Shown: positions 23,263-40,077 of the stretch, piece by piece
How positions within the stretch are numbered: position 1 is the stretch's first letter
Layout of the letters: every line of letters starts with the position of its first letter
Assembly (NCBI GenBank): GCA_965227295.1
Contig: OZ245742.1
Coordinates: 992,001-1,056,000 of the forward strand
DNA from: Leptonemataceae bacterium
GTDB taxonomy: Bacteria; Spirochaetota; Leptospiria; Leptospirales; Leptonemataceae
Direction of reading: 5' to 3'
Length of the DNA: 64,000 nucleotides
Translations under genes and position numbers: made by a program
Notes under the pieces: generated by a model
Told to the model about the DNA's origin: nothing
The model's input: only the letters and a program-made list of their open reading frames with translations
Databases searched by the model: none

Positions 23263-24414
23263 ATGATGATGAACTGGAAATATCGAATGCGTCGCGGCTA
23301 TGTCTATGCAACGGCTTTGCTGGCCGTCTTCATACTCACGCCGATGATGCCGGCCCTGGCCGAAGTGGACCGTGAGGTGCCCGAGCACCTGAGAGCCCCC
23401 GAGGGCGTGGACGAGTCCGAGTTCCGCAAGATCTACCGCGAAGGCACGAACCTCCAGCTGATCTACCGCGCCATTTACGAGGACGTCCGCCCGTCGGTGG
23501 TCCGCATCGTGGCCGAGGTCACCCCCCGGCGCGGGCAACAGGTCCCTGAAATTTTCAACGATCCTTTTTTCCGGAAGTTCTTTCCCGCGCCGCCGAAGCA
23601 GAGCCGCAAGATGACCTCGTTCGGTACCGGCTTTATTATTGATGAAAGCGGCTTGATCGTTACCAACAGCCACGTTGTCGGTGATGCGACGGTTGTTAAA
23701 ATCCATCTCCACGACGGCCGCGAGCTGGACGGACGCGTGAAGGGCGGCGACGAACTCACCGACGTGGCGCTGGTCGAACTCAAAGGGGTCTCGGACTTAA
23801 AGGCCGTGAAGTTCGGCGACTCCGAGGGCATCAAGGTCGGCGACATCGCCATTGCCGTGGGCAACCCCTTCGGTCTTGACGGTACGTTTACGACTGGAGT
23901 CATCTCCGGGTTGCACCGCGCGAACCTCGACGAAAGCGGCCTGCGTTTTATTCAAACCGACGCTTCCATTAACCAGGGCAACTCCGGCGGCCCGCTCCTG
24001 AACCTGCGCGGTGAAGTCATCGGCATCAATCGCATGATCTACTCGCCCAGCGGCGGTTCCATCGGCATCGGTTTCGCGATTCCCCTCGGTGAAGTGCAAC
24101 CGGTCATCAAACAGCTTGCGTCGAAAGGCCAGGTCGATCGACCGCTGCTCGGCGTAAAGATCGACGCCGCCCGTGCGGACCGCGGCGCCCAGGTGCCCGG
24201 GGCGTTAGTGGTCGAAGTCATCGGTGGATCATCGGCGCACGACGCCGGCATCATCGCCGGCGATCTCATCGTTAAGATCGACGGAACGCGCATTAAGTCG
24301 CCGGTGGATCTGGTGCGCTACATTCAGTCACGTACGATCGGCGACAGCGTCGAGATTGAATTGATGCGGAAGGACCAGGCCGTGAAGGTCGAGGCGAAGC
24401 TGAAGAAGATGTAA
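23263..24414 (+). CDS. HtrA/DegP-like trypsin protease with one PDZ domain
   Basis: Signal peptide; triad TNSHVV, DVA, NQGNSGGPL; C-terminal PDZ. Confidence 0.92.
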   Translation: MMMNWKYRMRRGYVYATALLAVFILTPMMPALAEVDREVPEHLRAPEGVDESEFRKIYREGTNLQLIYRAIYEDVRPSVVRIVAEVTPRRGQQVPEIFNDPFFRKFFPAPPKQSRKMTSFGTGFIIDESGLIVTNSHVVGDATVVKIHLHDGRELDGRVKGGDELTDVALVELKGVSDLKAVKFGDSEGIKVGDIAIAVGNPFGLDGTFTTGVISGLHRANLDESGLRFIQTDASINQGNSGGPLLNLRGEVIGINRMIYSPSGGSIGIGFAIPLGEVQPVIKQLASKGQVDRPLLGVKIDAARADRGAQVPGALVVEVIGGSSAHDAGIIAGDLIVKIDGTRIKSPVDLVRYIQSRTIGDSVEIELMRKDQAVKVEAKLKKM

Positions 24415-24429
24415 GATCGACCGCGAGGA

Positions 24430-25554
24430 TCAGCGTGCCCGGATGCTCCGGGCACGGTACTCGCGCGGGGTCATGCCGGTCGTGCGACGGAACGCTCGAT
24501 TGAACGTGGCCTTGGAGCTGAAGCCGACTTCCAGGGCGATGTTTAGCACGGTCTGTTGCGTATCTTCGGCTAGCAGTCGGCGCGCTTCTACGATCCGGTA
24601 GCCGTTCACGTAATTGACGAAGCTCTGTTTCCGTATCCGATTCAAGAGTTCCGACAACTGATGCGGTGAAATTCCCAGGCGTTCGGCTACCTCGACCATC
24701 GTCAGTCCCGGCTCTCGATACAGTCCGTCTTCCGTCATGAGGCGGTCGAGTCTGGCCAGCGTTGATTCCGTGTCCACGCCGGGCAGTTTCGATTTCCCGC
24801 GCCGGGCCGCGCCTTCAACCATCGCCGCGATGGGTCCATACGAATGCCGCAACAAAAACAAGAGCACCGCGCCCGCTATGGCGACGGGCAATGCGAGCCG
24901 GTAAATCGCGTCCAGCGGCCAGAACTGGTGAATCAACGCGCCCAGCATGGCAAGCATCCAACTACCCAGAACCCAACTCAGCAGCAGTACGACGCGCGGT
25001 TCACCACTCGCGTAGAATCGCCGCAATAACAGCGTCAGGATGTAGCCGACGAAGGAGAACTTCGGCAACGTCAGTACGAAGTAAGCAGCCCGATCGTACC
25101 ATCTTCCCAGGTAAGTACTCCCCGCCGCTCCCGCAAACTCCAGCCAGCTGAGATCGTGGATGCGTCGGTCCAGGTCGTGTTTGTACTCGGCCGGCGCAAA
25201 GTAGAGCGGCAAAAGAAAAAGCAGCGACATGAGTGCGGGTAGAAAGTGCAAGCCGATGCGCCTTTTCGGCAACGGCCCGGCCGCCGTTCGAAAATGCAGC
25301 CAGAGCGCAGGACCGGTCGCGTACGCCGGTGGAATCTGCACGAATCGGAAATGCGGATACCGGTCCAGGATTCCGAGGACGGCGAAAGCCGTGATGAACA
25401 TCCACAGGCTGATGGTGAACCAGAACAGCGCGATAAAAAAAGATTCCTGCGTGCGTCGCGGACCGATCAACAGCGACGTCGCGAGCAGCGTACCGTAGCC
25501 GCAGCCGAAGGCCGCAACAACGAGCCACGCCAGGTCGATCAACGACCAGATCAT
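24430..25554 (-). CDS. Membrane-anchored AraC-family transcriptional regulator
   Basis: Multi-TM N-half; C-terminal HQLSELLN...FVNYVNGYR...IALEVGFSSKATFNRAFRRTTGMTPREYR; ATG at 25554 with AGGAGAG RBS. Confidence 0.9.
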   Translation of the reverse strand: MIWSLIDLAWLVVAAFGCGYGTLLATSLLIGPRRTQESFFIALFWFTISLWMFITAFAVLGILDRYPHFRFVQIPPAYATGPALWLHFRTAAGPLPKRRIGLHFLPALMSLLFLLPLYFAPAEYKHDLDRRIHDLSWLEFAGAAGSTYLGRWYDRAAYFVLTLPKFSFVGYILTLLLRRFYASGEPRVVLLLSWVLGSWMLAMLGALIHQFWPLDAIYRLALPVAIAGAVLLFLLRHSYGPIAAMVEGAARRGKSKLPGVDTESTLARLDRLMTEDGLYREPGLTMVEVAERLGISPHQLSELLNRIRKQSFVNYVNGYRIVEARRLLAEDTQQTVLNIALEVGFSSKATFNRAFRRTTGMTPREYRARSIRAR

Positions 25555-25596
25555 GTGCGCCCCTCTCCTTTGCACAACACGCGGTAAAAAAAACGG

Positions 25597-25614
25597 CTCA
25601 ATCTATAGATTGAG
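25597..25614. promoter_or_regulatory. Perfect 18-bp palindrome, candidate operator in a divergent promoter
   Basis: CTCAATCTATAGATTGAG is its own reverse complement and lies between the AraC and LruC-like genes. Confidence 0.55.
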
Positions 25615-25711
25615 GCGATTGGCGATGCGAAACCAGCCACAATGTCCAATCTGAAAAAGCCCGTGCGAGATCAGCAAGCAGAAGATCGGCCGGATCACAG
25701 GATTGTAAACA

Positions 25712-28633
25712 ATGAATATAAATCTAAGTTCTGTTGTACTCATATTAGTGATTTCTATCGCAGGTGCCGGTTGCGCCCGGGACGATTGGTCTACGGCACG
25801 CCGCGGAGATGCCGGGACTGAGACTGCCGCCGCCGTGGCGGTTTCCGATGCGTTCCTTCCGCTTCCCGGTGGAGAGCCCGAGGCCTACGCCATGGAGATT
25901 CGCGACATCCGCGGCGAAGCGGACTTCGCATTCGAAACGACCCGAACGGCCGATCTCCACGTTTCGCTGGCCATCGCCGGCGAGGCCGAACCGAACCGAC
26001 TCGTGCAGCTGCGCGAAGTCCGCAGCGGTCGACCGGGGCGCGTGCTCTTTCGCGCGCTTACGAATCATGCCGGGGCGGTAAACGGCAATCTCACGGTTGC
26101 CAACGCCGACCAGGACGCACAACTGGATTTCGAATGCGGCGGCCGCGTGTACGCCGTGCCCGTTGCACTGGACGATCTCAAGAAAATGGACCGGCGCATC
26201 GACGTGAACGCTGCAGCCGTATTGAATGCCGCGGCCCTGGCGGACGCGGATGGCGACGGCGTCCCCGACGAAGCCGACGATTTCCCGAACGACGCCGATC
26301 GGGCGACGCGCGTACTGTTTCCCACCGACGGACGTTACACCGTTGCTTTTGAAGATCTCTATCCGAAGAAAGGCGACGCGGACTTCAACGACTACGTCAT
26401 CCAGGCGCGGCAGGAGGAACACCTCAACCCGGCAGGGGACGTGGTACGCATCTTCGGTTCCTACCGCCATGTTGCGAAGGCGGCCGGTTACAATCACGTG
26501 TTGCGACTTACGCTACCGGTCGCCGCGGCGGAGTACACGCTTACGCGCTACGGCCAGGACGGCGCCCTTGTGTCCACGACAGTGGACCGCGCCGCGCCCT
26601 TCGAAAACGTCACGATCACCGACCGCAGTGATCGTACGATCGCGCAGTCCAACGCGCACGCCGGTCAGGACTTCATGCCCGGCGATCTTTTTGAAATTGA
26701 CATCGTTCCGGATGCGCCTGTGCGAAAGGAAGATCTGGGCGGTGCCCCGTACGATCTGCACATCTTCGTGGTAAGCACAGGACGCGAGATTCACTTCGCG
26801 GGCAAATTTTTCGACGACGACGACTCCGACCTCTACCTGGACAATGACGGCTTTCCCTGGGCGTTGCTGGTGCCGGTGGACTGGCGCTGGATGTACGAGA
26901 CCCAGGATATCTTCGTGGCCTACGAATTCTTCGAAGATTGGTACACATCGAACGGAACGAACCACGCGGACTGGTACAACTTTCCGGACTTGAGCGTGGC
27001 CTTTGAGAACGTACAGACGCACTATTCCGACGAGCCGCTGTTTACGCCGCCGCCCGGCCTGGATCCGGCACACTTTCAGATTTCGCGATCTATGCGTCCC
27101 GTGCCGGTGCGCATCAACTCGTGCTATATTCCCGTCGGCGCGTTGTACGCGATTGAACCTCTGAGCGGCATGCCGGTTTTTCCGTCTCCCGGAGAACTGC
27201 AATTTGAGTATGATCGGGCGAAGCTGATTGACGCCGGTTTTTCGGAAACGTTCGCCGTATACGCGTACGACTCCGCCGCGAACACCTACGCTCAGGTACC
27301 GATGATCCAGATCGATTCGGCGGCGGGCCTGGTGCGGGCTCCGGCCAATGCCGTCGGCGCCTACATTCTCACGGTGCTGAACTTTCCGTCGATCGACGGT
27401 GACGATTCCTGCGAACCGGCGCCCACCGAATATCCGCCGGGAGTGGTCTCTGTAGTTCCGCAATCGAATAGCGGAGTGCCGAATGACATTGTAATCAACG
27501 GCGACGGGCGCTTCGTGGCTTTTCGGTCTTCCGCGAGCGACCTCGTACCGGGAGATACGAATGTCGCGGACGACATCTTCGTCTATGACCGCCAGACCGA
27601 CACGACCACCCGCGTTTCGGTGTCTTCGGATGGAAGCCAGGCGAACGCTCAGTCATTCGAACCAGCCCTGAGCGCTGACGGACGTATGGTCGCGTTCCGA
27701 TCGAACGCCACGAATCTCGTCACCGCGAGCGCGAGCTACGGCATCTTCGTCCACGATCGCCAGACCCATCAAACGACCCTCGTCTCGGTGACCTCGGACG
27801 GAACACCGGCGAACGGTGCTTCTTACTTTCCGTCGATCAGCGCGGACGGACGGTTCGTTGCATTTCAATCATTTGCGACCAACCTCGTGCCCGGAGATAC
27901 GAACGGGCAGTACGATATTTTCGTGCACGATCGCCAGACCGGTACGACGACGCGCGTGTCGATTGCTTCCGACGGCACCGAGGCGAATAACGCATCCGGC
28001 GCCCCGAGCCTGAACGCCGACGGACGGTATGTGGTCTTTCAGTCCCAGGCCTCCAATCTGGTTTCCGGTCGCAACGGTATTTTCGTACACGATATGCAAA
28101 CGGGCTCCACAACCCATGTCTCGGTCGCCTCGGACGGAACGCCCGGTTCCCCGATTCCCGTCGCCCATTATACCAGCCCGTCCATGAGCAACGATGGGCG
28201 ACTCGTGGTCTTCCAATCCTCGGCGGCGAATCTGGTCCCGGGCGATACGAACAGCCAATTCGACATATTCGTACACGATCGCCAGACGGGTACAACGAGG
28301 CGAGTATCGGTTGCTTCCGACGGAACACAGTCCAACCGCTCGTCCTTCGAACCCTCCATGAGCACCGACGGCCGCTACGTGACGTTTCACTCGACGGCCG
28401 CGGCTCTCGTCCCGGGGGCGCCGTCGTTCGGGAACCAGGTCTACGTCCATGACCTGCAAACCGGCGTGACCTCGCGCGTCTCGGCCGCGGCGGACGGAAC
28501 GCCCGGCGACAGTTCCTCTATGATGGCCCGGATCAGTGGGGACGGTCGCTACGTCGTCTTCCGGTCCAACGCCACGAACCTGATACCGGGAGTTACAAGC
28601 GGCACGAACATACTCGTGTTTCCGAATCCGTAA
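25712..28633 (+). CDS. LruC/DUF4842-domain lipoprotein with a C-terminal 7-repeat TolB/PD40-like beta-propeller
   Basis: Lipobox AGAGC; DADGDGVPD..DDFPND; AFEDLYP..GDADFND; GFPWALLVP; seven PS.S.DGR.V.F.S repeats. Confidence 0.85.
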   Translation: MNINLSSVVLILVISIAGAGCARDDWSTARRGDAGTETAAAVAVSDAFLPLPGGEPEAYAMEIRDIRGEADFAFETTRTADLHVSLAIAGEAEPNRLVQLREVRSGRPGRVLFRALTNHAGAVNGNLTVANADQDAQLDFECGGRVYAVPVALDDLKKMDRRIDVNAAAVLNAAALADADGDGVPDEADDFPNDADRATRVLFPTDGRYTVAFEDLYPKKGDADFNDYVIQARQEEHLNPAGDVVRIFGSYRHVAKAAGYNHVLRLTLPVAAAEYTLTRYGQDGALVSTTVDRAAPFENVTITDRSDRTIAQSNAHAGQDFMPGDLFEIDIVPDAPVRKEDLGGAPYDLHIFVVSTGREIHFAGKFFDDDDSDLYLDNDGFPWALLVPVDWRWMYETQDIFVAYEFFEDWYTSNGTNHADWYNFPDLSVAFENVQTHYSDEPLFTPPPGLDPAHFQISRSMRPVPVRINSCYIPVGALYAIEPLSGMPVFPSPGELQFEYDRAKLIDAGFSETFAVYAYDSAANTYAQVPMIQIDSAAGLVRAPANAVGAYILTVLNFPSIDGDDSCEPAPTEYPPGVVSVVPQSNSGVPNDIVINGDGRFVAFRSSASDLVPGDTNVADDIFVYDRQTDTTTRVSVSSDGSQANAQSFEPALSADGRMVAFRSNATNLVTASASYGIFVHDRQTHQTTLVSVTSDGTPANGASYFPSISADGRFVAFQSFATNLVPGDTNGQYDIFVHDRQTGTTTRVSIASDGTEANNASGAPSLNADGRYVVFQSQASNLVSGRNGIFVHDMQTGSTTHVSVASDGTPGSPIPVAHYTSPSMSNDGRLVVFQSSAANLVPGDTNSQFDIFVHDRQTGTTRRVSVASDGTQSNRSSFEPSMSTDGRYVTFHSTAAALVPGAPSFGNQVYVHDLQTGVTSRVSAAADGTPGDSSSMMARISGDGRYVVFRSNATNLIPGVTSGTNILVFPNP

Positions 28634-28670
28634 CGAAGTTCGAACGAAAATATTTTAACAGGAGCAACAG

Positions 28671-29333
28671 ATGAGTACGATGATAGAACGAGTTGTAAAT
28701 CATGGAGCTTTGCTCGCAACCGGCGCGGTCCTCGTGCTGCTGACCGGCTGCACGTCATTGGTTCCCGTAAAAAATCAGCTCAACGAAGCGAAGAAAGTCA
28801 TGATCGCCCCGGACCAAACTGTGGTGTACGTCACGCATGATTTCGCGCTGGAAAAACCGGATGACCGTTGGAAACTCGAAGAACTCCACGATCACGTCTA
28901 TGCACCGCGTCGCTCACTGAAGAGCGCATTGGAGGAATCTTACGACGGCATCGAAGTGCTTATCTCCGATGAAGAACTGCCGGGTTATTCCGATTTGTAT
29001 CACGAGTATACGGCGAAGGCCGCAGAGTCCGGCGTGGATACGGTCATTTCTTACAGGCCCTACGTATCGCTGTATCGCAAAGAGGACGGCACATGCACGC
29101 TGAGCCTGACGGCGAACATCTCGTTCTATGGTAAGCCGGGTAAGGTTCTCGGCAAGAAAACCTTCAGGGTCGGCAAGGTGGAAGCGACCTACAGCGGCAG
29201 CGACTGTAGTGTCGAGAACTCAAAAGAACTGCTCCAGGTCTCCGGCGTAAGAGGGCTCCTGAAGAAGTTCTCGAACGCCGTGGGCGAGGATATGCAATCA
29301 CGCGTCATTCCGGAGATCAAGGCGGCGCAGTGA
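28671..29333 (+). CDS. Hypothetical lipoprotein
   Basis: AGGAG RBS; signal peptide with LLTGC lipobox. Confidence 0.7.
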   Translation: MSTMIERVVNHGALLATGAVLVLLTGCTSLVPVKNQLNEAKKVMIAPDQTVVYVTHDFALEKPDDRWKLEELHDHVYAPRRSLKSALEESYDGIEVLISDEELPGYSDLYHEYTAKAAESGVDTVISYRPYVSLYRKEDGTCTLSLTANISFYGKPGKVLGKKTFRVGKVEATYSGSDCSVENSKELLQVSGVRGLLKKFSNAVGEDMQSRVIPEIKAAQ

Positions 29334-29345
29334 TCGATAGCGGCG

Positions 29346-30878
29346 TCACTGAATCTTTCGCTGACGCCCTTCCCAATACGGCTCGCGCAACTCACGGCGC
29401 AGAACTTTTCCCGAGGGATTTCGCGGCAAAGTTTTGATGCGTACAACCTTGCGCGGGCGTTTGTACGCCGCGAGTTCGTTTGGCTGCCACTCGCGCAGTT
29501 CCTCAACGCTCAGATCCCGCGCAGCAACGACGAACGCGCAGACGGCCTCGCCGGACTCTTCGTCAGGAATGCCGGCGACGGCTGCTTCCTGAATGTCCGG
29601 ATGCCCGGCAAGGAATCGCTCCACTTCGATCGGGTAGATCTTTTCGCCTTTCGACATGATGAGGTCATGTTTGCGGTCCAAAAGAAAGAGATAGCCGTCC
29701 TCGTCCAGATAACCAATGTCCCCGGTCGCCAGCCAGCCGTTCCGCATTACCACGGCGTTTTCGTCCGGGCGATTCCAGTAACCGCGCATCACCGTCGCGC
29801 CGTGTGCGAACACTTCGCCCGGGATTCCAGGCGCGCAGACGGCCCCGTCTTCCCCGCGCACTTCGATCTCGATACCGGCCGCGGCCTTGCCGGCCGAAGC
29901 ACTGATGTCGTCTTTCGAACCCGGCTGAGACGCAAGAATGCGACGATGATCGCCTGCGGACAACAACGTGACCACCCCCGTGGTTTCGGTAAGGCCGTAG
30001 CCCTGGGTAAAATCGCACTGAAACGTGAGCGCCGCCGTTTCTAGCAACTGCCGCGCAATGGGTGAGGCGCCGTAGACAAGATGCTTCAGCGAAGAAAAAT
30101 CCGCGGCGGCAGCACGCGGGTGCTGGATGATCGCCTGCTGCATGGCCGGCACAAGCAGGCTATGGGTAATCCCGTGGGTTTCTATGGTTTCGATAACTTC
30201 CCCCGGGTCAAACTTAGCGAGCAACACATTCGTTGCGCCGCCGAAAAAACCCAGCAGTAGAATTCCGCTACCGGCTATGTGAAAGAACGGCGCCACAGCC
30301 AGGTTCATTGAATCAATGCCGAAGCCGGGAATTTCGTAGCGCATCTGTTCGAGCAAGGCCACCATGTTGGCGTGACTCAGCGGCACGCCTTTAGGATTGC
30401 CGGTGGTTCCGGATGTATAGAGCTGCACGAAGTCCTGCTCCGGCGCTGGCAACTCCGGCGTCACGACCGCGTCGGCTTCCAGCCAGGTGCCTGGCTGCGT
30501 GACGTGCAGCTCGTAGCCGTCGCGAGAAAGTTGCCGCGTAATGCCTTCGAAGGCGGGACCGGCGAAGAGCAGCTTCGATTCGGAGTCTTTGATGATGAAC
30601 TCGCTCTCCCGGACTGACAGCCGCCAGTTTAAGAGCACCGGTACGGCGCCGTGAAAGGCCGCGCCGAGAATCAACTGCACCACGTAACCGTGATTAAAGT
30701 CCATAATTGCGAAACGATCGCCCTCCTCAAGGCCCAGCTGATTCAGGCGGGCGGCTCCCTGCAAGGCCAGGGCGTGGAGTTCGCTGTAACTGAACGTACG
30801 CTCTTCAATCCGTAAGGCCGGGCGCCCGGGGTCGAAACGCGCGCGATAGCTTAGATTTTCTGCGACGGTCGTATGCAT
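29346..30878 (-). CDS. Fatty acyl-CoA ligase / adenylate-forming enzyme
   Basis: YTSGTTGNPKG, QGYGLTET, TGDIG, LPRNPSGKV. Confidence 0.92.
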   Translation of the reverse strand: MHTTVAENLSYRARFDPGRPALRIEERTFSYSELHALALQGAARLNQLGLEEGDRFAIMDFNHGYVVQLILGAAFHGAVPVLLNWRLSVRESEFIIKDSESKLLFAGPAFEGITRQLSRDGYELHVTQPGTWLEADAVVTPELPAPEQDFVQLYTSGTTGNPKGVPLSHANMVALLEQMRYEIPGFGIDSMNLAVAPFFHIAGSGILLLGFFGGATNVLLAKFDPGEVIETIETHGITHSLLVPAMQQAIIQHPRAAAADFSSLKHLVYGASPIARQLLETAALTFQCDFTQGYGLTETTGVVTLLSAGDHRRILASQPGSKDDISASAGKAAAGIEIEVRGEDGAVCAPGIPGEVFAHGATVMRGYWNRPDENAVVMRNGWLATGDIGYLDEDGYLFLLDRKHDLIMSKGEKIYPIEVERFLAGHPDIQEAAVAGIPDEESGEAVCAFVVAARDLSVEELREWQPNELAAYKRPRKVVRIKTLPRNPSGKVLRRELREPYWEGRQRKIQ

Positions 30879-30890
30879 AAGTACTCCGAA

Positions 30891-31916
30891 TTACTCCTGG
30901 CGATAGAGAGCGGCACCGGCCGCGTAGCCCGCCCCGGCGGTGGTCAGTAAGATTAAGTCGCCGGAACTTAAGCGGCCGTTCCGACGAGCCGTATCGAGGG
31001 CGAACGGTAACGTGCCCGAGGTGATGTTGCCCGTGTAGTCGATGGTCACGATCGTTTTCGATTCTGAAATTCCCAGCTCGCGACCGACGGCCCGCATGAT
31101 TCCCAGGTTCGCCTGATGTGGTATGAAGCACGCCACGTTCGCGACATCCACACCGGCTTCGTTGCAGACCCGGCGACAGAACAGACTCATCGCTTCCACG
31201 GCGTCTTCGAATATCAGCTTACCGTCCACGGCCATGTAAACGGCGTGCAATCCTGCGCGGACAGTCTCTTCCGATGCCGGGCGTGCGCTGCCCCCCGCGG
31301 GTGTAAATAGATTTCCGGCGCGCGTTCCATCGGACCATAGCTCGCAACCAAGAAAGCCGGTGTCCTCGCTCCGCGCGCGCGAAAGAATCACCGCCCCCGC
31401 GCCGTCGGCAAAAATCGGAAACAACCGTCGGTCCCGTGGATTCGTGAAACGCGACTTGATGTCCGCGCCGATCACCATCACGTAACGCATGCCCGTTAAC
31501 ACCGAACGCACGCCGTGATCCAGGCCGAACAGAAAACTCGCGCAGGCAGACTGCTTGTCCTCGGCGGGGCAGACGGCGCCGATCAACGCCTGCACACGAC
31601 AGGCGGCCGCCGGCGAGGTCCAGTCCCCGGTGGTTGTGCATAGTAAGATTTGATCCAGTTCTTCGGCGGCGATGCCCGCGTCTTCCAGCGCGAGCTTCGC
31701 CGCTTCCGCGCCGATGTCACTGGTGGCCGTGCCGTCCGCGGCAAAGTGCCGCGTTCGAATGCCGACGTGTTCTTCGATCCACTCCGCCGTCGTATCGATA
31801 CCGTAACGATCGATGAGCGCCTGGTTGCTCAGCGGGCTGCCGGGCAGGTATCGCCCGGTGCCGGCGATGCCGACGCCCCGGGGCAACGGCGGGCGTTGTC
31901 GGTGTTGTTGAATCAT
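30891..31916 (-). CDS. 3-oxoacyl-ACP synthase III (FabH-like) 1
   Basis: GTGRYLP, GIRTR; triad SACASF / PHQAN / TGNITSG; FADGAGA. Confidence 0.9.
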   Translation of the reverse strand: MIQQHRQRPPLPRGVGIAGTGRYLPGSPLSNQALIDRYGIDTTAEWIEEHVGIRTRHFAADGTATSDIGAEAAKLALEDAGIAAEELDQILLCTTTGDWTSPAAACRVQALIGAVCPAEDKQSACASFLFGLDHGVRSVLTGMRYVMVIGADIKSRFTNPRDRRLFPIFADGAGAVILSRARSEDTGFLGCELWSDGTRAGNLFTPAGGSARPASEETVRAGLHAVYMAVDGKLIFEDAVEAMSLFCRRVCNEAGVDVANVACFIPHQANLGIMRAVGRELGISESKTIVTIDYTGNITSGTLPFALDTARRNGRLSSGDLILLTTAGAGYAAGAALYRQE

Positions 31917-31922
31917 AACGGC

Positions 31923-33149
31923 TCAGGCCGCGGGGCCGACGCGAATGGCAATGTTTCCCGGCGGATGTTCGTTTTTGTGCATGAGCTGATGCACGTGTCC
32001 GATCTCGTTGAAAGAGAACACGCGCTGCACCGCGGCATGGACCTGACCGCATGTGATCATCTCCTGTAAGATGCGAATGTCTTCCTGGCCCGCGAAGTGT
32101 GACCCTTGAAAGCGCACGGATTTACGACTGAACTCCGAGCCGGCCATGGACGCGAGATATCCGGTCGTCCCGGCGCAAATCACAACCATGCCGCCCGGCG
32201 CACACAGATGAAACGAAAGCGGCAGCGTATGCTCTCCAGGATGTTCGAAAACAATTTCTGGTAACTTGCCTTTTGTTATTGTTAGTACTTCTTCACGAAA
32301 TACGTTCGCCCCGGCAATCCACCCGGCTTCGTTGTTTTTGTTTCGCGCGCCCGGTATTTTTACGTGATCGCGCCGGATTACGCCGGCAGCCCCAAGGCGC
32401 TTGCAGAATTCCGCCTTCTCTTCGCTGTTTACAACGGCCACGGGAATGCCGCCGGCGGCTTTTACGATCTGAACGGCCATGCAGCCGAGGCCGCCGCTCC
32501 CGCCCCAGATCAACACCGGCATGCCGGGTGTAACAACGTTTGGCTCCCAGTGCAACAGCATGCGCACCGCCGTGGCACCGCACAGTAAGTAGGCCGCGCT
32601 GTCTTCCCAGCTCAAGTTGCGCGGGCGCGGCCAGACCTGCCAGGCGCGAGCACGACAGAACTGCGCGAACGATCCCCAGTTCGTTTCGTAGCCCCAGGCC
32701 CGTAGCGACGGCGCATAAGCCGCATCACCGCCGTGCGCGATATAGGGATCATCGTGCTCCCAAAAGCCGGGGGAAACGATCACCTCATCACCGACGCGAA
32801 CATTTGCAACGTTGTCGCCGACCTGGTAGACGATGCCGGCTGCATCGGAGCCGCCGATGTGAAAGTCCTCGGGCTCGCCCTGTTTATTGCGCGCGGCAAT
32901 GACGTCCACCGGTCGCCCCAGAGCGGCCCAGACGTTGTTATAGTTCACGCCCGCGGCGATTACAGCGACGAGTACATCGAGCGCCCCCAATGGCGGCACG
33001 GGAACCGTTTCGATTTGGAAGGCGTGCTCCGGGTCGCCGAATCGCTCCCGGCGGATGACCTGGGCGTGCATGAACTCCGGCACCACGCCCGGGGGCGGCA
33101 GTTCTCCGATCGGATACAGTTTCTTCGTATGGCGCACGGTGGAAGCCAT
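31923..33149 (-). CDS. ccr: Crotonyl-CoA carboxylase/reductase family (carboxylating enoyl-thioester reductase)
   Basis: RFGDP..AFQ, AAGVNYNNVWAALG, FHIGGSDAAG, WGYETNWGSFAQF, GGSGGLG, VFEHPG, CAGTTGY, QGSHFA. Confidence 0.9.
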   Translation of the reverse strand: MASTVRHTKKLYPIGELPPPGVVPEFMHAQVIRRERFGDPEHAFQIETVPVPPLGALDVLVAVIAAGVNYNNVWAALGRPVDVIAARNKQGEPEDFHIGGSDAAGIVYQVGDNVANVRVGDEVIVSPGFWEHDDPYIAHGGDAAYAPSLRAWGYETNWGSFAQFCRARAWQVWPRPRNLSWEDSAAYLLCGATAVRMLLHWEPNVVTPGMPVLIWGGSGGLGCMAVQIVKAAGGIPVAVVNSEEKAEFCKRLGAAGVIRRDHVKIPGARNKNNEAGWIAGANVFREEVLTITKGKLPEIVFEHPGEHTLPLSFHLCAPGGMVVICAGTTGYLASMAGSEFSRKSVRFQGSHFAGQEDIRILQEMITCGQVHAAVQRVFSFNEIGHVHQLMHKNEHPPGNIAIRVGPAA

Positions 33150-33264
33150 AGAACCGTCCGACTAATATGCTCTCTCTTGAATTTAGCAAGTAGTATTTTC
33201 CGCATTAGAAAATCATAAATACTTGCCGGTTCCGTGCCGGAGGAAGATCGTTCCGGCATAGTAT

Positions 33265-34317
33265 ATGAGCGAGTTGTTATGCGGATCAGTGGAGAGCGTA
33301 CGCATCAGCGGCGTGGGGACGGCCTTTGCTTCGAGCGGATGCTGGATTCATAACAACGACATTCATGAACTTCTGCACGGGTCGGCGTGGCGGAACATCA
33401 TGAAAGACCAGGGCCTGGACCCGCGGTACTATGAGCAACGCCACGGTTTTGTGCGCCGACACTGGACCCACATGCCCGGCGAGGCACTGTCCTCCGACGA
33501 ACCGACCTCCGCAGATTTGATGACCGACGCGGCGCGGGCCGCACTGGAACAGGCGCGGATCCGTCCGGAAGATGTTTCGCTGTTCATCGCCGTGTCCACG
33601 ACATCGCCACGGTACACTTCGTCGCTTGGTACGTTGGTTGGCGGCCGCCTGGGCCTGCGCAGTCCCGCCTTCGAAATGAAATCGGGTTGTTCTTCCTCGC
33701 TGTACGCCTTAACCATCGCCTATCGATTCTTAGCGGACGGAGCGCGACACGTATTGATCGCGGCAGGAGAAACACTCTCGCGGGTGCTACCACCGCGGGC
33801 ACCGCTCATCTACTCCGGCGGCGACGGCGCCGGTGCCGTCGTACTGAGTCGCGAATCTTCCGGCGACTCCGGCCTGCTCGCCGCGTACTTAGACTCCGAC
33901 GGAAGCTTTGCTCAGGACATGGGCGTGCCGGGTAACCTGCCGCCGCTCCGGAGTGATCTGGACGCGGGGAACTATTATATGGCCGCAACTGCAAAGATCG
34001 GTGACGCGGCGAAAGAACGCTGGCCGGAAAGTGCGGCCGCCGTCTTGCGGGCAGCCGGCTGTAGCGGCAATACCGTAGATCTCTATGTTCCGCATCAAGT
34101 AAGCCGGGATCTCATCTACCACGGTGCCGAAGTTGCCGGCATCCCCCGCGATCGGGTGGTGGATTGCCTCGATCGTTACGCCAACTGCGGTTCGGGTACG
34201 GTCTTGATTGCGCTGGCCGAAGCGCAGCGCCAGGGTCGTTGGGAGACGGGCAGCACGCTGTTGTTGAACGCCGTCGGCGGCGGGCTCGCCTGGGGAGGAT
34301 TGCTGCTTCGCGCGTGA
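33265..34317 (+). CDS. 3-oxoacyl-ACP synthase III (FabH-like) 2, divergent
   Basis: Triad SGCSSS / PHQVS / YANCGSG; GDGAGA; GGGLAWG. Confidence 0.85.
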   Translation: MSELLCGSVESVRISGVGTAFASSGCWIHNNDIHELLHGSAWRNIMKDQGLDPRYYEQRHGFVRRHWTHMPGEALSSDEPTSADLMTDAARAALEQARIRPEDVSLFIAVSTTSPRYTSSLGTLVGGRLGLRSPAFEMKSGCSSSLYALTIAYRFLADGARHVLIAAGETLSRVLPPRAPLIYSGGDGAGAVVLSRESSGDSGLLAAYLDSDGSFAQDMGVPGNLPPLRSDLDAGNYYMAATAKIGDAAKERWPESAAAVLRAAGCSGNTVDLYVPHQVSRDLIYHGAEVAGIPRDRVVDCLDRYANCGSGTVLIALAEAQRQGRWETGSTLLLNAVGGGLAWGGLLLRA

Positions 34318-34332
34318 GCCGTGAGAGGATGC

Positions 34333-35094
34333 ATGGGCACACTGGATGAAAAACGAGCGCTGATCCTCGGGGCCGGCCGCGGCATCGGCGCGGCGACAGC
34401 CGCCGAATTTGCGGTACGCGGCGCGCAGGTCCGCCTCGTGGCGCGGAGCGAGGCGGAACTAATCGCACTGCACGGGAAGTTAGACGGCCAGGGACATGGG
34501 CACCACGCCCTGGACCTCAGCTCTGCCGACGACTGTGCCGCGCTCATCGACGCTATCGCAAGCGAACCGCCGCACATCGTCGTACAGAACTTTCACGCAC
34601 GCAGCCGACTGAAGAGACTGCGCCACATTCACGCATCGGATCTGGCCGAGAGTATCCGCGCAAATACCGAGGCCCTGCTGCAACTCCTCGCGGCGGTGCT
34701 GCCGTTTCAACGCGAGGCCGGCTTTGGCCGTTGGATCAGCGTAAGTTCCATGGCCGCCCGTCTCGGCGGCCCGGGACAGGCATCGTATGCGGCGGTGAAA
34801 TCGGCCATCGAGAGCATCTATCGTACACTGGCCGTGGAAGAACACCGTACCGGCATTACGGCGAACATCGTGTCACCCGGCTTCATCGATACGCCGGGCG
34901 TGCGCGAGAATTATCCGGAGGCATTGCGCGAACGTCTTGCCGCGATGAACCTCAGCGGACGCGCCGGCACAGCGGAAGAAGTGGCGCATGCGATTGCGTT
35001 TCTGGCGGAGCCGGCCGCCGCGTTTGTTACGGGGAGCAATCTTGTAGTGGACGGTGGTCTGGAGCGCGGCTGGTTTTTGAATCGGAGCGATTGA
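34333..35094 (+). CDS. SDR oxidoreductase (FabG-like ketoreductase)
   Basis: ILGAGRGIG, SS, YAAVK, SPGFIDT, VTG..L.VDGG; ATG at 34333 after GAGAGG. Confidence 0.88.
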   Translation: MGTLDEKRALILGAGRGIGAATAAEFAVRGAQVRLVARSEAELIALHGKLDGQGHGHHALDLSSADDCAALIDAIASEPPHIVVQNFHARSRLKRLRHIHASDLAESIRANTEALLQLLAAVLPFQREAGFGRWISVSSMAARLGGPGQASYAAVKSAIESIYRTLAVEEHRTGITANIVSPGFIDTPGVRENYPEALRERLAAMNLSGRAGTAEEVAHAIAFLAEPAAAFVTGSNLVVDGGLERGWFLNRSD

Positions 35095-35104
35095 GTCTCG
35101 CAAC

Positions 35105-35494
35105 TCACGCCGCATCGCCCGACTGGTTCTGCACCATGGCGCGCCAGACGATTTGCCAGGCGCCGTCGGTTTGTTGCAACGCCCAGTGTTCGCGGCCCTG
35201 TTCTTTGTGACTCTCACCGTTCAGCGTGTATTCGATCGTGTAGTCCATGATCACGACGCCGGTGCGACCCCAGGTGCGAATGCTGCGGCGGCGTACCTCG
35301 AAGGCGCGGGTCTGCGCTGCGCTTACATAGTCTTTGATCGTTTGCAGGCAGGCGTCGCGGCCCGCGATTTCGGTTTCGCCGTCGGGGGCGACGAAGATGA
35401 CGTCCGGATGCAGGAGCGGTGTAATGTCATCGATGCGGCCCCGGGTCCAGCCGTCGTTGAAGTGTTCCATGAGTTGTGGGATGGCGTCGGGCAT
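35105..35494 (-). CDS. NTF2-like (DUF4440/SnoaL-type) protein
   Basis: 129 aa: LLHPDVIFVAPDG...GRDA...DGAWQIV. Confidence 0.75.
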   Translation of the reverse strand: MPDAIPQLMEHFNDGWTRGRIDDITPLLHPDVIFVAPDGETEIAGRDACLQTIKDYVSAAQTRAFEVRRRSIRTWGRTGVVIMDYTIEYTLNGESHKEQGREHWALQQTDGAWQIVWRAMVQNQSGDAA

Positions 35495-35556
35495 GTTTGG
35501 TTGGTGGCTGATGTTAAGTCGGCGTCAAGGAATTAGCGGCGGACGGGCTTTGTGTA

Positions 35557-35590
35557 GATCGTGGCGTTTCTCCGCAGAAGCGCGGAGGGG
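35557..35590 (+). repeat. Left imperfect inverted-repeat arm enclosing the AT-rich ATPase gene
   Basis: GATCGTGGCGTTTCTCCGCAGAAGCGCGGAGGGG; 29/35 identical to the reverse complement of 37358-37392 by manual alignment. Confidence 0.7.
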
Positions 35591-35735
35591 TAGCACCAGG
35601 CTAAATAAGATCAGAAAGTGGTATTGGTGGTGTTGAATTGTTGCTCCGATTGAGAGTTGCTACCTGCATTGCTTGAGTCGTTGGTTTACTTTTTCCCCGG
35701 GCGACAACAGGTTGCAGTTGCAGCCGAGTATGTGA

Positions 35736-37277
35736 TCACCTGTCCGGTTTGAATATTGGAGCCAGCCGCACATCATCGACTTGCTTGCGATCTGCCCCTC
35801 GCTCCCAAAATGCAATTTCTTGAACTCGATTATCTCCCCTCCGGGGAGGATGCGCATAAAGGCCCAAGTCCAGCATATACGCTTCGTATCGTCCATGATA
35901 ACTCTTAGCGCTTGTGTTTTCATGGACTTGATGAATATACCTGTAATCGAGTAACTTGCTCATCAATTCCTTGAAAGTGCGATTCTGCGATGAATCATCC
36001 TTGGTAATCAGGAAAACATTCTTCTTCGCATCTTCAACGCAGAAGGAAACTATTTGCTCTTTTAGTTTTTCTAGTTCATCGAGTTCGTCACCTTCCATAG
36101 TTGTGAGATCTTGATTCTTCGTTTCCTGCAGATAGAGAGTCGCCGCCTCATTGATAAGCAATGTATCTATTTTTTCCTTGTCTGCATCGCGCCCCCGCTC
36201 AATCGCTCGTGCAAGCACGTTTATGAAGTCACGTGGTACTCCTCCCGATGCCAAGATCAATTGATGCCAGGATTCGCCTCCAAATAATGCATCAAAGTAG
36301 CCAACATCTTGACTACCAGTCGCACTCTTGCTGATCTCCTTCCAAATTCGCGAAATAAAATCCTGAACAGATTGAAAGTTTCTAAACGATTTATCGAGAT
36401 CTATAGGCTGAATATCGTGACGCAGCTGTGATCCAATAGATGCCCGCCCCTCTATACGATATATTTTGCTGCGATGAGGGATCGTGCCTATTTTCAGATA
36501 GGCCGCCTCATTTTTCACAAGGGAACCCACATAATCCAGAACGCTAGCTTGGTTTTCGATACCCAAATGATAAAAATCATCTATGATAATAAAGCAAGGG
36601 CGGCCGAACCAAGTAAGGATGTCCCTCAGAAGTAAGCTCGCATCGTGTAGGTGACGATCTATTTCTTCTGATTTCAAGTAATCTCCAGAATGCGTCTCTT
36701 CTACGCTGTTCGTAGTCCGCTCCCCCGCTCGTAATTGATTTTTTCCGGCATAAAGATCCAATCCCATCTCACTATCAAGGTTAGACTTTTGCCCACGCTT
36801 AAGCTCTGATTTTGTGAAGCCCTGCAATCGTAGAGCCAAATACTCCTCTTCCCTCTTCAAACGTCTCATCAGAGAGTACCTCTTTGGCGACCAGAAGCAC
36901 CGCCAAAAAGGCGTCCGTTTATTTATCAATACTTTTGCACCCGCGAAGATGACGCGAAGTATTTGAATTAGCACATCGGGATAGTCTAACTTTTTGTATT
37001 TATCTATGTCGACCCATATCAGCCCATCACCCCGCTCATTTACTCGCCGCTCCAATTCGGTTAGAAGCATCGTTTTTCCAGCGCCTCTTCTACCAAATAT
37101 TACCGTATGAGAGTGCAATTCGATTTGATCAATATGGTCACTTGGGTCGATATATTCCATGGAGCGCCTCCGATCAGATCTAGACGCTTGTAAGTATAGG
37201 AATAGACGCCGAACAATTTCATCTTCTAGCTTTACCATTCTACTAAGCCTGCCGAACCAGAATATTGACACAATCAA
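35736..37277 (-). CDS. Lone P-loop ATPase (ORC/Cdc6- or STAND-like) in an AT-rich insert
   Basis: Walker A GRRGAGKT, Walker B FIIIDDFYH, GGVPRDFI, putative C-terminal winged helix; visibly lower GC than the flanks; start uncertain. Confidence 0.8.
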   Translation of the reverse strand: MIVSIFWFGRLSRMVKLEDEIVRRLFLYLQASRSDRRRSMEYIDPSDHIDQIELHSHTVIFGRRGAGKTMLLTELERRVNERGDGLIWVDIDKYKKLDYPDVLIQILRVIFAGAKVLINKRTPFWRCFWSPKRYSLMRRLKREEEYLALRLQGFTKSELKRGQKSNLDSEMGLDLYAGKNQLRAGERTTNSVEETHSGDYLKSEEIDRHLHDASLLLRDILTWFGRPCFIIIDDFYHLGIENQASVLDYVGSLVKNEAAYLKIGTIPHRSKIYRIEGRASIGSQLRHDIQPIDLDKSFRNFQSVQDFISRIWKEISKSATGSQDVGYFDALFGGESWHQLILASGGVPRDFINVLARAIERGRDADKEKIDTLLINEAATLYLQETKNQDLTTMEGDELDELEKLKEQIVSFCVEDAKKNVFLITKDDSSQNRTFKELMSKLLDYRYIHQVHENTSAKSYHGRYEAYMLDLGLYAHPPRRGDNRVQEIAFWERGADRKQVDDVRLAPIFKPDR

Positions 37278-37357
37278 GCATGGGCTGATTTTTTATAAAC
37301 CACTAAACCTTAGGCCCTTTCCGGAGATCTGCCTCCGCCAGTCTAGTCTAACCATCC

Positions 37358-37392
37358 CCCCTTCGCGCCTCTGCGGTAAAAACGCCATAATC
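37358..37392 (-). repeat. Right imperfect inverted-repeat arm enclosing the AT-rich ATPase gene
   Basis: CCCCTTCGCGCCTCTGCGGTAAAAACGCCATAATC, complementary to 35557-35590. Confidence 0.7.
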
Positions 37393-37455
37393 ATCCCCAC
37401 TCCCGCCCCAAATTTCCAGTTGCCCCCGAAGCAATGAACAGCCATTCCGTCACCG

Positions 37456-39066
37456 ATGCCCCGACTCCAATCATCCATTCGCACGAGCACCGAAGAGTAT
37501 CAGCAAAACGCCGCGGCGTTGCAGGAGCGCACGCAGTACATCCGCGAAACCGCGCAGCGCATCCAGCAAGGCGGCGGCGAGAAGTCGCGGAAGCTGCACG
37601 AATCCCGCGGCAAATACTTCGTGCGCGATCGCATTCGACTCCTGCTGGATCGCGGGTCGCCGTTTCTCGAAGTCGGTCTCTTTGCCGGTCACGGCGTCTA
37701 TGAATTCGAAACACCCGCCGCGGGAATCGTGTGCGGCGTGGGCTTGATCGAAGGCGTGGAGTGTATGATCGTTGCGAACGACGCCACGGTCAAAGGCGGC
37801 ACTTACGTACCGCTTACCGTGAAGAAACATCTGCGCGCGCAGGAGATCGCCCTCGAAAATCGTTTGCCGTGCATCTATCTCGTCGACAGCGGCGGCGCGT
37901 TTTTGCCGATGCAGGACGAGGTCTTTCCGGATCGCGAGCACTTCGGCCGCATCTTCTACAACCAGGCACGGCTCTCGGCGCAAAAGATTCCGCAGATCGC
38001 CGTGGTGATGGGTTCGTGCACCGCCGGCGGCGCTTACATCCCGGCCATGTCCGAGGAAACCGTCATCGTCCGCGAGTACGGCACGATCTTCCTCGGCGGG
38101 CCGCCTCTGGTAAAGGCCGCCACCGGCGAAGAGGTCACTCCCAACGAGCTGGGCGGGGCCGAGGTGCACACCGAAAAATCCGGCGTGGCCGATCACTACG
38201 CCGTGAACGACGAAGATGCGCTCAGCATCACTCGCACCATCGTGCGCAATCTCAATCACCAAAAGGCCGGCAAACTTCCGCGGATCGTAAGTTACGACGA
38301 GCCCCTCTACGATCCCGCCGAAATCTACGGCGTCATTCAAAAGGATGCGCGCAAGTCGTACGATGTACGCGAGATCATCGCCCGCATTGTCGACGGGAGC
38401 GTCTTCGACGAATTCAAGCAGCGCTACGCCACGACCATCATCACGGGCTTTGCGCGTATTTTTGGTTATCAGGTGGGCATCATCGCCAACAACGGAGTCT
38501 TGTTTTCCGAAAGCGCGCTCAAGGCGACGCACTTCATTGAACTGTGCTGCGAACGAAACGTGCCGCTGCTCTTTTTGCAGAACATCACGGGTTTTATGGT
38601 GGGCCGCCAGTACGAGGCCGGCGGCATCGCCAGGGACGGCGCGAAAATGGTGACCGCCGTCTCCACGGCCAACGTTCCGAAACTCACCGTCGTCATCGGC
38701 GGTTCGTACGGAGCCGGAAACTACGGCATGTGCGGGCGCGCTTACTCGCCGCGTTTTCTATGGATGTGGCCGAACGCGAAGATCGGCGTGATGGGCGCCG
38801 AACAGGCGGCGTCGGTTCTCTTAACTGTGAAGCAAGATCAGTTAGCCCGCGACGGCAAATCGCTGAACGAACAGGAACAGGCCGAATTCAAGCAGCCCAT
38901 CCTGGACGAGTACAACGCAAAGTCGGACACGCTCTATTCCAGCGGCCGGTTGTGGGACGACGGCGTCATCGATCCCGCGGATACGCGCCGGGTGTTGGGT
39001 CTTTCGCTTTCGGTCTGCGACAACGCGCCGATTCCGGAACCGAACTTCGGTTTGTTTCGTATGTAG
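37456..39066 (+). CDS. mccB: Methylcrotonyl-CoA carboxylase carboxyltransferase (beta) subunit
   Basis: [70 protein letters not shown]. Confidence 0.93.
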
Positions 39067-39300: not shown

Positions 39301-40077
39301 TCACGGATAAAACGTCGCCTGCACGCTGACCCCGTGCTCGTACTCCTGCTCACTCGCGATCGACACGGGCGCGGCCACGCTTAAGGCGAAATCATCTTCG
39401 ATCTTAAAGCGCAAACCCGGCGCCACCTGTGTGGAAAACAGGCGTCGTTCCTTAGGGGCGAAGCGCATCTTACGCTGAAACTCCGCGAACACATCGAAGC
39501 CGTCGAAGACCAGGCCGGCTTCGGCTTCCCAGACCCAGGCACGATCGAAGGTCTCCTCTTCGGTTTCGCGAAAGCGACTGTTCGTCTGCACGTTTCCGCG
39601 AATCGCCGTGGTGATATAGACCGGGCCCGGGCTCCAGGACAGACCGAGACGCGATTCGAAACGGCCCAGGCGATTGCTGCCGATCCCGCGCGCGTCGTTT
39701 CCCGTGGGCCATTCAATCTCCACGCCGGCGGCTCCGTAGAAGTCCCGCCAGCGCAGACCGAAGCGGCCGCCCGTGGCGATGTTGTCGAGATGCGAGCGAT
39801 CGCCGTCGATGGAGTCGTCTTTGCGCGTAACCGGGACGTCGAAGTAGACCGATCCCCAGGATGCGTAGGCGTATTCGGCGAGCAAGGTCGCGGTGGTCGT
39901 GCGTTCGAAGGTTTCGTTTTCTTCGGATTGAAAGTGCGCACCGGCCAGGCGCACACGATGTCGGGGCAACAGCGTCTGCGTGAATGCGCCGTCCGGCGGT
40001 AACTGTCGCTCGGCGTAAGTTAGCGAGGGAGCCGCTGTGACGGCGAGCGTTGCAATCGCAAGCAGGTTTCGAATCAC
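39301..40077 (-). CDS. Putative outer-membrane beta-barrel / transporter-like protein
   Basis: Signal peptide, alternating amphipathic strands, EWPTG motif, aromatic residues near the C-terminus. Confidence 0.6.
   Translation of the reverse strand: MIRNLLAIATLAVTAAPSLTYAERQLPPDGAFTQTLLPRHRVRLAGAHFQSEENETFERTTTATLLAEYAYASWGSVYFDVPVTRKDDSIDGDRSHLDNIATGGRFGLRWRDFYGAAGVEIEWPTGNDARGIGSNRLGRFESRLGLSWSPGPVYITTAIRGNVQTNSRFRETEEETFDRAWVWEAEAGLVFDGFDVFAEFQRKMRFAPKERRLFSTQVAPGLRFKIEDDFALSVAAPVSIASEQEYEHGVSVQATFYP

Follow-up and report, generated by a model that had tools for sequence, protein, structure and literature searches.

Gene content and layout of the cassette

The locus described here lies in a 64,000-nt stretch of the genome of a Leptonemataceae bacterium of the order Leptospirales (GenBank assembly GCA_965227295.1, contig OZ245742.1, positions 992,001 to 1,056,000). 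The whole stretch is called the window, window coordinates are 1-based, and genome coordinates are written C1:... throughout. Between window positions 29346 and 35094, five genes, hereafter the cassette, encode an acyl-CoA ligase, two 3-ketoacyl-acyl carrier protein synthase III enzymes (KASIII-A and KASIII-B), a crotonyl-CoA carboxylase/reductase (CCR) paralogue and a short-chain dehydrogenase/reductase (SDR). The ligase, KASIII-A and CCR genes are on the minus strand, and the KASIII-B and SDR genes are on the plus strand.

29346-30878, minus strand: acyl-CoA ligase, 510 aa; AMP-binding PF00501 (250.6 bits) and AMP-binding_C PF13193
30891-31916, minus strand: KASIII-A, FabH-like condensing enzyme, 341 aa; triad C125/H267/N297
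31923-33149, minus strand: CCR paralogue, AntE-like, 408 aa; TIGR01751
33150-33264: divergent intergenic spacer, 115 bp, 42.6% GC
33265-34317, plus strand: KASIII-B, divergent KASIII, 350 aa; triad C142/H277/N307
34321-35094, plus strand: classical SDR ketoreductase, FabG-like, 257 aa; PF13561 and PF00106

The genes are tightly packed, with gaps of 12, 6 and 3 bp between them and of 10 bp to the NTF2-like gene that follows, and the GC content of the spacer compares with 60% for the whole window. A first-pass annotation of this DNA had described two divergent operons around a 115-bp spacer, followed by a convergent NTF2-like gene, and the open reading frames (ORFs) and family assignments on which this description was based were found again here. 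Since the arrangement recurs in related loci, as shown below, it is not due to chance. The catalytic Cys-His-Asn triad reported earlier for both KASIII proteins was likewise recovered at the positions listed. Further agreement came from a Pfam search of 38 other ORFs in the window, which found no acyl carrier protein (ACP), polyketide synthase (PKS) or other ethylmalonyl-pathway gene, and from a genome-wide search for PP-binding domains (PF00550), which gave zero matches within the window. A scan of the spacer found no consensus sigma-70 site, and a promoter and terminator scan of positions 28500-35800 gave a number of sites not above that of shuffled sequence. In the database, KASIII-B is called as a protein of 305 aa (P0001), with its start 45 residues too late; the 350-aa start is backed by N-terminal residues that are conserved in the orthologues (G25, N30, H34, G39 and W42).

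The gene set recurs in related loci

The search for related loci was performed with the smaller KASIII-B alignment A2, alignment A1 being too diverse, and yielded 30 loci, 13 from a one-genome-per-species scan and 17 full-length orthologue loci from a metagenome scan. Twelve of the 13 species-scan loci were labelled Leptospirales or Spirochaetota, including those of Leptospira ainazelensis and L. ainlahdjerensis, and one was labelled Bacteroidota; where the related loci are named, nearly all belong to Leptospirales. KASIII-A was encoded adjacent to the KASIII-B orthologue in 25 of the 30 loci, the SDR was present in 22, the ligase and the CCR in 17 each, and all five genes were found in 11. 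Most of the missing genes coincide with contig ends, and two of the loci (L055 and L059) are cut off on the side where the sister arrangement has the CCR.

At least four gene orders were seen among the related loci. The divergent order of the window was also found in L018-L020 and L051-L053, while a second order runs KASIII-B, KASIII-A, SDR and ligase, in some cases followed by the CCR. In the third, KASIII-A, SDR, ligase, a DUF1574 gene and the CCR are followed by a convergent MBOAT gene and then KASIII-B, and in the fourth a carrier protein gene comes first, ahead of KASIII-B, KASIII-A, SDR, ligase and CCR. The packing can be very close, as in L. ainazelensis (L023), where KASIII-A, SDR, ligase and DUF1574 genes each overlap by 4 bp and the CCR gene starts 5 bp beyond. 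The first-pass annotation had proposed to test whether this group of five genes is kept together in other genomes; it is, recurring as a unit in about 30 related loci and in at least four orders.

Two distant relatives of KASIII-B (L067 and L094, 34-39% identity) were found beside a different set of genes, which encode a second KASIII, a short adenylating enzyme (ligase), a carrier protein, an SDR, a GH3-family protein and a carboxyltransferase. One of these loci lies amid sugar epimerase and glycosyltransferase genes, and the other beside an MMPL transporter gene. Judged by gene content, they are a different cluster type, in which a carboxylase stands in for the CCR.

The cassette is accessory and distinct from housekeeping copies

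Of the 156 Leptospirales genomes searched, 14 (this genome counted), representing 9 of 35 genera, have an orthologue of KASIII-B at E<=1e-60, and neither of the two genus-mates has one. In both genus-mates, the carboxyltransferase gene that flanks the cassette region on the right follows htrA, the left flank, within ~300-460 bp, and in one of them a stretch of 295 bp corresponds to 13,198 bp of the window. Since htrA and the carboxyltransferase gene nearly adjoin in both genus-mates, the segment 24415-37455 (hereafter the island) is, by this comparison, an insertion here or a segment lost from both genus-mates.

Separate copies of two of the cassette enzymes are encoded elsewhere in the genome. 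A second FabH (C1:4538267-4539298; L015:8262-9317) scored 241 bits and is 30% identical to KASIII-A. This gene adjoins thyA, folA and murE/murF, not a fab operon, and the housekeeping acpP lies 176 kb off at C1:4714031. KASIII-A passed the FabH model PRK09352 (283.3 bits, cut-off 249) and was below the cut-off of TIGR00747 (248.8 bits, cut-off 292.1), while KASIII-B scored 139.6-153.2 bits against FabH models and was below the cut-off of every one (TIGR00747, 139.6 bits vs 292.1). With both proteins below TIGR00747 and a separate FabH present at C1:4538267, the concern of the first-pass annotation that these might be the housekeeping FabHs of the genome was not borne out.

Similarly, the cassette CCR scored 435.6 bits against TIGR01751 (cut-off 378.55), and a second CCR at C1:3373835, 54% identical to it, scored higher (592 bits); the housekeeping CCRs of Leptospira are 55-58% identical to the cassette CCR. 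The CCR phylogeny was a quick IQ-TREE run, a more careful search not having finished. In this quick tree, the second CCR of the genome and the Leptospira housekeeping CCRs formed a tight clade (SH-aLRT 99), all CCRs of the cassette type fell outside that clade on long branches, and the window CCR grouped (support 100) with CCRs from loci whose genes are arranged as in the window. A grouping of the cassette CCR with primary-metabolism enzymes, for which the first-pass annotation had allowed, was not seen in this tree. Because the genome encodes a further FabH and a CCR with a higher score, and because the set is patchy and island-borne, we conclude that the cassette is not housekeeping, and we hold with good confidence that it is a conserved, specialised, non-PKS gene set.

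Acyl-CoA mutases are encoded at other places in the genome, and one of them, a single-chain protein of 677 aa at C1:3777879, might be an ethylmalonyl-CoA mutase. In addition, a weak KASIII-like ORF (C1:1945179-1946807; TIGR00747, 49.6 bits) stands beside a small PP-binding ORF and may belong to a second specialised condensing system.

Properties of the encoded enzymes

The closest solved relative of the cassette CCR is AntE (PDB 4y0k, 400.6 bits), followed in the structure ranking by 9kva, 4gi2, the Streptomyces/Kitasatospora CCRs (~206 bits) and CinF. The protein keeps the motifs NYNNVW (residues 69-74), WGYETN (152-157) and QGSHF (348-352). In an alignment of the cassette CCR with nine others, WG[YF]ETN and QGSHF were kept in all ten proteins, and NYNNVW showed variation at some positions in the nine others. 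According to a study of KsCcr, the CO2 pocket of that enzyme consists of Asn81, Phe170, Glu171 and His365, and the F170Y variant still carboxylates (PMC6628652). All four pocket residues are matched in the cassette CCR, the register with KsCcr being taken from the motifs. The residue following the motif His was Phe in 10 of the 10 aligned CCRs, the housekeeping CCR included. Work on CinF reportedly contributes to a rule by which Phe at this gate goes with short substrates, and from the Phe together with that work we infer that the substrate is short, most likely crotonyl-CoA, which would be converted to ethylmalonyl-CoA. AntE instead has Val (V350) right after the catalytic His, and the V350G substitution broadens its substrate scope (PMC6164871).

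The closest solved structure to KASIII-A is the FabH 4ryb (194.5 bits), with OleA at ~54 bits, and KASIII-B matched FabH structures at 129.2 bits. For both proteins together, OleA structures scored 44-54 bits vs 129-194 bits for FabH structures, the OleA-type model PRK09258 gave 48-80 bits (cut-off 285), the pyrone-forming ketosynthase structures CorB and MxnB gave 57-85 bits, and the StlD/DarB and DarB models gave 23-32 bits against cut-offs of 450-550. The AlphaFold2 model of KASIII-B (pLDDT 95.2) had its best Foldseek match with FabH 4ryb (TM 0.84), followed by BioZ and PqsD, and OleA appeared first at rank 46. Both KASIII proteins are FabH-like rather than OleA-like by sequence, and KASIII-B is so by predicted fold as well.

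KASIII-B has ~30 additional N-terminal residues, and in alignments of its family C142 and N307 were invariant and H277 nearly so. The family is rare, with ~25 protein clusters at E<=1e-67 in a search of 5.8 billion clusters, and an ESM Atlas search with KASIII-B returned generic KASIII clusters only. Alignment of KASIII-A with E. coli FabH showed that W32 and R151 are kept, and that F87, R36 and R249 are replaced by Ser101, His and Gly272, respectively; in KASIII-B, the F87 position is held by Thr118. We take a small residue at the F87 position to go with larger primers, and R249 of FabH is presumably part of the ACP docking site. The small residues S101 and T118 hint, at most, at primers larger than acetyl.

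The closest solved relatives of the ligase are the fatty-acyl/feruloyl-CoA synthetases 8weu/8wev (260 bits) and FadD13 (247 bits). Compared with PDB and NCBIfam models, none of which represents OleC, the ligase had fatty-acyl-CoA synthetases as its closest matches, and its orthologues in the related loci are 36-57% identical to it. The SDR matched PF13561 (148.1 bits), PF00106 (106.4 bits) and also PF08659, and the Pfam search gave no match to PF01073 (3beta-hydroxysteroid dehydrogenase, OleD-type). Its top NCBIfam matches were FabG models, below their cut-offs, and it carries GAGRGIG at residue 17 and YAAVK at residue 156.

MBOAT, DUF1574 and carrier protein genes accompany the set in relatives

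An MBOAT gene (PF03062) adjoins the set in 18 of the 30 related loci, and a gene for a DUF1574 protein does so in 16. DUF1574 is a member of the SGNH clan with no known function (PMC9487903). A carrier protein of the PP-binding type (80-88 aa) is encoded directly upstream of KASIII-B in four loci (L026 and L064-L066); a hidden Markov model built from these four proteins matched only its own four source ORFs when searched against the window and the Leptospirales loci. In four loci, a fatty-acid desaturase gene is added.

Six loci contain two to six tandem copies of a gene for a ~400-aa protein with no Pfam match, the arrays lying between the MBOAT and DUF1574 genes (L055:461-7576; also L022, L028, L030 and L058). 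This genome has no homologue of the array protein at E<=1e-5. From their position, the array proteins could be periplasmic partners or acceptors.

This genome encodes 12 MBOAT proteins (for example at C1:3062045, 3269986 and 799964), none of them near the island. One of these, C1:3062045-3063553, is orthologous to the MBOAT found with cassettes of the window type, and a DUF1574 gene is adjacent to it, the pair spanning C1:3062045-3064666. Several of the 12 paralogues adjoin a DUF1574-like gene, and the family as a whole is greatly expanded. A FastTree phylogeny of 16 cassette-adjacent MBOATs together with the 12 paralogues placed the former in at least three lineages (SH-like supports 0.999, 1.0 and 0.963), and the paralogue with which they group differs from lineage to lineage. 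Because there are at least three such lineages, each tied to a different paralogue, the MBOAT linkage arose or persisted repeatedly, which argues for a functional tie and not a single inherited accident.

Other contents of the island

The remaining features of the island and its flanks are as follows.

23263-24414: htrA, left flank
24415-37455: insertion carrying the cassette, 13,041 bp, 58% GC
24430-25575, minus strand: AraC regulator
25712-28633, plus strand: LruC-domain/PD40 protein, 973 aa
28671-29333, plus strand: 220-aa protein of no family
35105-35494, minus strand: NTF2-like DUF4440/SnoaL protein, 129 aa; PF14534 (54 bits)
35736-37277, minus strand: P-loop ATPase, 44.6% GC
37456-39066: carboxyltransferase gene, right flank

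Four of these were considered as members of the conserved set and rejected. A search of the related loci at E<=1e-8 gave no homologues of the NTF2-like, 220-aa and LruC-domain proteins, and on this comparison the NTF2-like protein is island cargo outside the conserved set. The carboxyltransferase gene is a core gene that stands beside htrA in both genus-mates. The P-loop ATPase has ORC/CDC6-like AAA features, and in a PADLOC scan of four island proteins against anti-phage models it gave the only matches, which were weak; its low GC content suggests that it arrived in the island separately. No tRNA gene was found at the island borders. To the right of the island, a trio of LemA/TPM-domain genes (39301-42186) is followed by a transposase-like ORF (HTH and rve_3 integrase core; 42861-43931), 5.4 kb from the island.

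Proposed function of the cassette

The cassette is best read as a self-contained, horizontally mobile acyl-building unit of Leptospirales. As to what it builds, our leading, still tentative proposal is that this PKS-free set makes a branched, probably alpha-ethyl, beta-keto/beta-hydroxy acyl thioester which, in the relatives, feeds O-acylation of the envelope. The ligase would convert a free fatty acid to its CoA thioester, and the extra CCR would carry out the reductive carboxylation of a 2-enoyl-CoA of short chain length to ethylmalonyl-CoA, the likeliest substrate being crotonyl-CoA supplied by beta-oxidation. The two KASIII enzymes would then perform a decarboxylative Claisen condensation of the acyl primer with the ethylmalonyl extender, and perhaps also with a malonyl thioester. 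The resulting alpha-branched beta-ketoacyl thioester would be reduced to the beta-hydroxy form by the NADPH-type SDR. In most relatives, the adjacent pair of MBOAT and DUF1574 (SGNH) proteins would O-acylate an envelope acceptor outside the cytoplasm, and in this genome a distant MBOAT, of which C1:3062045-3063553 is the closest, may be used, or the free product may be released.

That the KASIII enzymes use an alkylmalonyl-CoA directly was the central suggestion of the first-pass annotation, and this part of it stands as the most economical chemistry, because the set is conserved and non-housekeeping, no PKS adjoins it in the 30 loci, and the CO2-pocket motifs of the CCR are kept. An envelope acyl donor is likelier than a free metabolite as the product, because the relatives couple the cassette to MBOAT, DUF1574 and sometimes a carrier protein. 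We regard as rather unlikely the stronger version of the proposal. In it, a ligase, a ketoreductase, a dedicated CCR that fixes CO2 and two free-standing KASIII enzymes would suffice for Leptospirales and a few other bacteria to assemble, with no PKS, a beta-hydroxy acyl group that is short, polyketide-like and alpha-ethyl- or alkyl-branched, and MBOAT and DUF1574 would export this group and esterify it to a glycan, lipid or lipoprotein of the cell surface.

A number of observations weigh against the envelope proposal. Genes for an MBOAT, a DUF1574 protein and a carrier protein are all missing from the island of the window itself, and in one relative (L024) an MFS transporter takes the place of the MBOAT, which is thus not strictly required. 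In another relative (L025), the 17 kb of sequence do not include a CCR, which is thus not strictly required either. Leptospirales have many MBOAT genes, 12 of them in this genome, and this raises the chance of accidental adjacency, although to no more than an estimated 2% or so per locus, and the number of independent loci is below 30, since several are near-duplicates (L020/L053, L055-L057 and L065/L066). No dehydratase or acyl-CoA dehydrogenase is part of the set, so that the source of the enoyl-CoA is assumed. Finally, the quick CCR tree does not establish monophyly of the cassette CCRs, and the Phe-gate rule behind the predicted short CCR substrate is a presumed one.

Alternative explanations

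The alternative that survives best, itself unlikely, is that the cassette yields a small molecule in free form, for instance an alkyl-branched alpha-pyrone or a beta-keto acid that acts as a signal, and that the MBOAT link is secondary; the chemistry would then resemble that of pyrone-forming KASIII enzymes or of ethylmalonyl-using germicidin biosynthesis. The intact state of the five ORFs in an island that lacks MBOAT, SGNH and carrier genes is consistent with such a product, as are the AraC regulator within the same island, the MFS transporter of L024 and the detectable relationship to CorB and MxnB. However, the CorB and MxnB scores are far under those of FabH, the StlD/DarB and DarB models score a small fraction of their cut-offs, and the MBOAT link extends over 18 of 30 loci and three paralogue lineages.

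Less likely again is a CoA-based elongation cycle of the type formed by ketoacyl-CoA synthase, ketoacyl-CoA reductase and enoyl-CoA reductase (KCS/KCR/ECR-like), in which the CCR would act as a plain reductase and an elongated, unbranched acyl-CoA would result. The ligase, the KASIII, the SDR and the enoyl-CoA reductase homologue would account for three of the four elongation activities, a desaturase joins the set in four loci, and ECRs reduce without CO2 (PMC6628652). The CO2-pocket motifs (Phe/Tyr-Glu and His) are nonetheless present in 10 of the 10 CCRs, which would be unexpected had the enzyme drifted to reduction only. There is also no dehydratase in the set, and two different KASIII proteins are conserved.

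We consider it improbable that the cassette supplies alkylmalonyl-CoA to a distant PKS, in the manner of RevR/RevS/RevT, the candidate recipients being the megasynthases at C1:4.88-4.90 Mb. RevR/RevS/RevT do combine the same three activities, those of a FabH homologue, an acyl-CoA ligase and a CCR (PMC5187497), and the genome has ORFs of PKS/NRPS (nonribosomal peptide synthetase) size with carrier domains. In the region C1:4883578-4901199, three ORFs of megasynthase size (3247, 1916 and 2636 aa) carry carrier domains and are PKS/NRPS-like, and related DNA is present in both genus-mates. Against supply of this kind, a distance of 3.85 Mb separates the PKS and the window, no PKS adjoins any of the 30 related loci, and a second KASIII and an SDR would be superfluous. 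The PKS fragment was found in both genus-mates that lack the cassette and in neither of two genomes that have it, which is weak evidence, since the cross-genus DNA search was insensitive.

A head-to-head condensation of the Ole/Lst type, leading to a beta-lactone or an olefin, is very improbable. The gene count of LstABCD/OleACD is indeed matched by the two KASIII-family proteins together with the adenylating enzyme and the reductase, and a beta-lactone was among the products put forward by the first-pass annotation. This part of its proposal does not agree with the scores of both KASIII proteins, which are far closer to FabH (129-194 bits) than to OleA (44-54 bits), with the late rank of OleA in the fold search and the low PRK09258 scores, with an SDR that has no PF01073 match, or with a ligase whose closest matches, among the PDB and NCBIfam models compared, are fatty-acyl-CoA synthetases; in addition, that pathway has no step for a CCR.

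An ordinary housekeeping role in type II fatty acid synthesis initiation and the ethylmalonyl-CoA pathway is hardly tenable, even though KASIII-A and the CCR pass the PRK09352 and TIGR01751 cut-offs and the 677-aa mutase could be an ethylmalonyl-CoA mutase, given that the set is lacking in both genus-mates and in 142 of the 156 genomes of the order, sits in an insertion, coexists with separate FabH and CCR copies, and has CCRs outside the housekeeping clade.

Comparison with known systems

The nearest likeness in gene content is to RevR/RevS/RevT of reveromycin biosynthesis in Streptomyces sp. SN-593, where a FabH homologue, a ligase and a CCR are likewise found together (PMC5187497). The cassette differs in that it is not within or beside a PKS cluster, in the window or in the annotated flanks of the 30 related loci. 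It also adds a conserved, divergent second KASIII and an SDR, has MBOAT and SGNH proteins as partners in the relatives, and belongs to Leptospirales, not to actinomycetes. AntE, the CCR of antimycin biosynthesis, is the closest solved relative of the cassette CCR and shares the CO2-pocket motifs with it, yet AntE feeds an NRPS-PKS, and at the position after the catalytic His the cassette CCRs have the Phe of housekeeping CCRs in place of its Val.

In D-alanylation by DltABCD, a ligase, a carrier protein, an MBOAT and DltD act together. A comparable combination is encoded in the relatives, where an adenylating ligase, a small carrier (in four loci), an MBOAT and an SGNH-clan protein stand together. 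However, two KASIII together with a CCR and an SDR would here construct the group to be transferred, whereas Dlt transfers an amino acid, and the cassette ligase resembles fatty-acyl-CoA synthetases. DUF1574 is, moreover, another SGNH family, with no known function (PMC9487903). The window itself has no MBOAT, SGNH or carrier genes and falls outside a Dlt-like arrangement.

OleABCD and LstABCD combine thiolase-superfamily condensing enzymes with an adenylating enzyme and a reductase, as the cassette does. In contrast to these systems, the cassette has FabH-like KASIII proteins with a Cys-His-Asn triad, a classical SDR rather than one of the 3beta-hydroxysteroid dehydrogenase type, and a CCR. 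Mycolic acid condensation is carried out by FadD32, Pks13, AccD4 and CmrA. The likeness to it would be one of logic only, in that an activated fatty acid would be joined to a carboxylated acyl thioester, followed by keto reduction to an alpha-branched beta-hydroxy acid and transfer to the envelope. The proteins themselves are of unrelated types: the cassette has KASIII enzymes where the mycolate system has a type I PKS, and a CCR where it has a biotin carboxylase, and the predicted side chain is short.

Implications

All five enzyme families are known, and a full-text literature search found no description of this combination of genes. If the proposed function is correct, carboxylating enoyl-CoA reductases would pass their products straight to free-standing KASIII enzymes, with no polyketide assembly line involved, and the cassette would be linked to the bacterial MBOAT/SGNH acyl-transfer machinery and to DUF1574. 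The patchy, island-borne distribution makes the cassette tractable for heterologous expression. For Leptospirales, an order not known for such chemistry, it would represent specialised lipid or envelope chemistry. Should the reading of export through MBOAT and DUF1574 hold, the cassette would stand for a new kind of envelope acylation with a mycolate-like logic, and would provide the first defined acyl donor for the DUF1574 SGNH family and for the many MBOAT paralogues of spirochetes.

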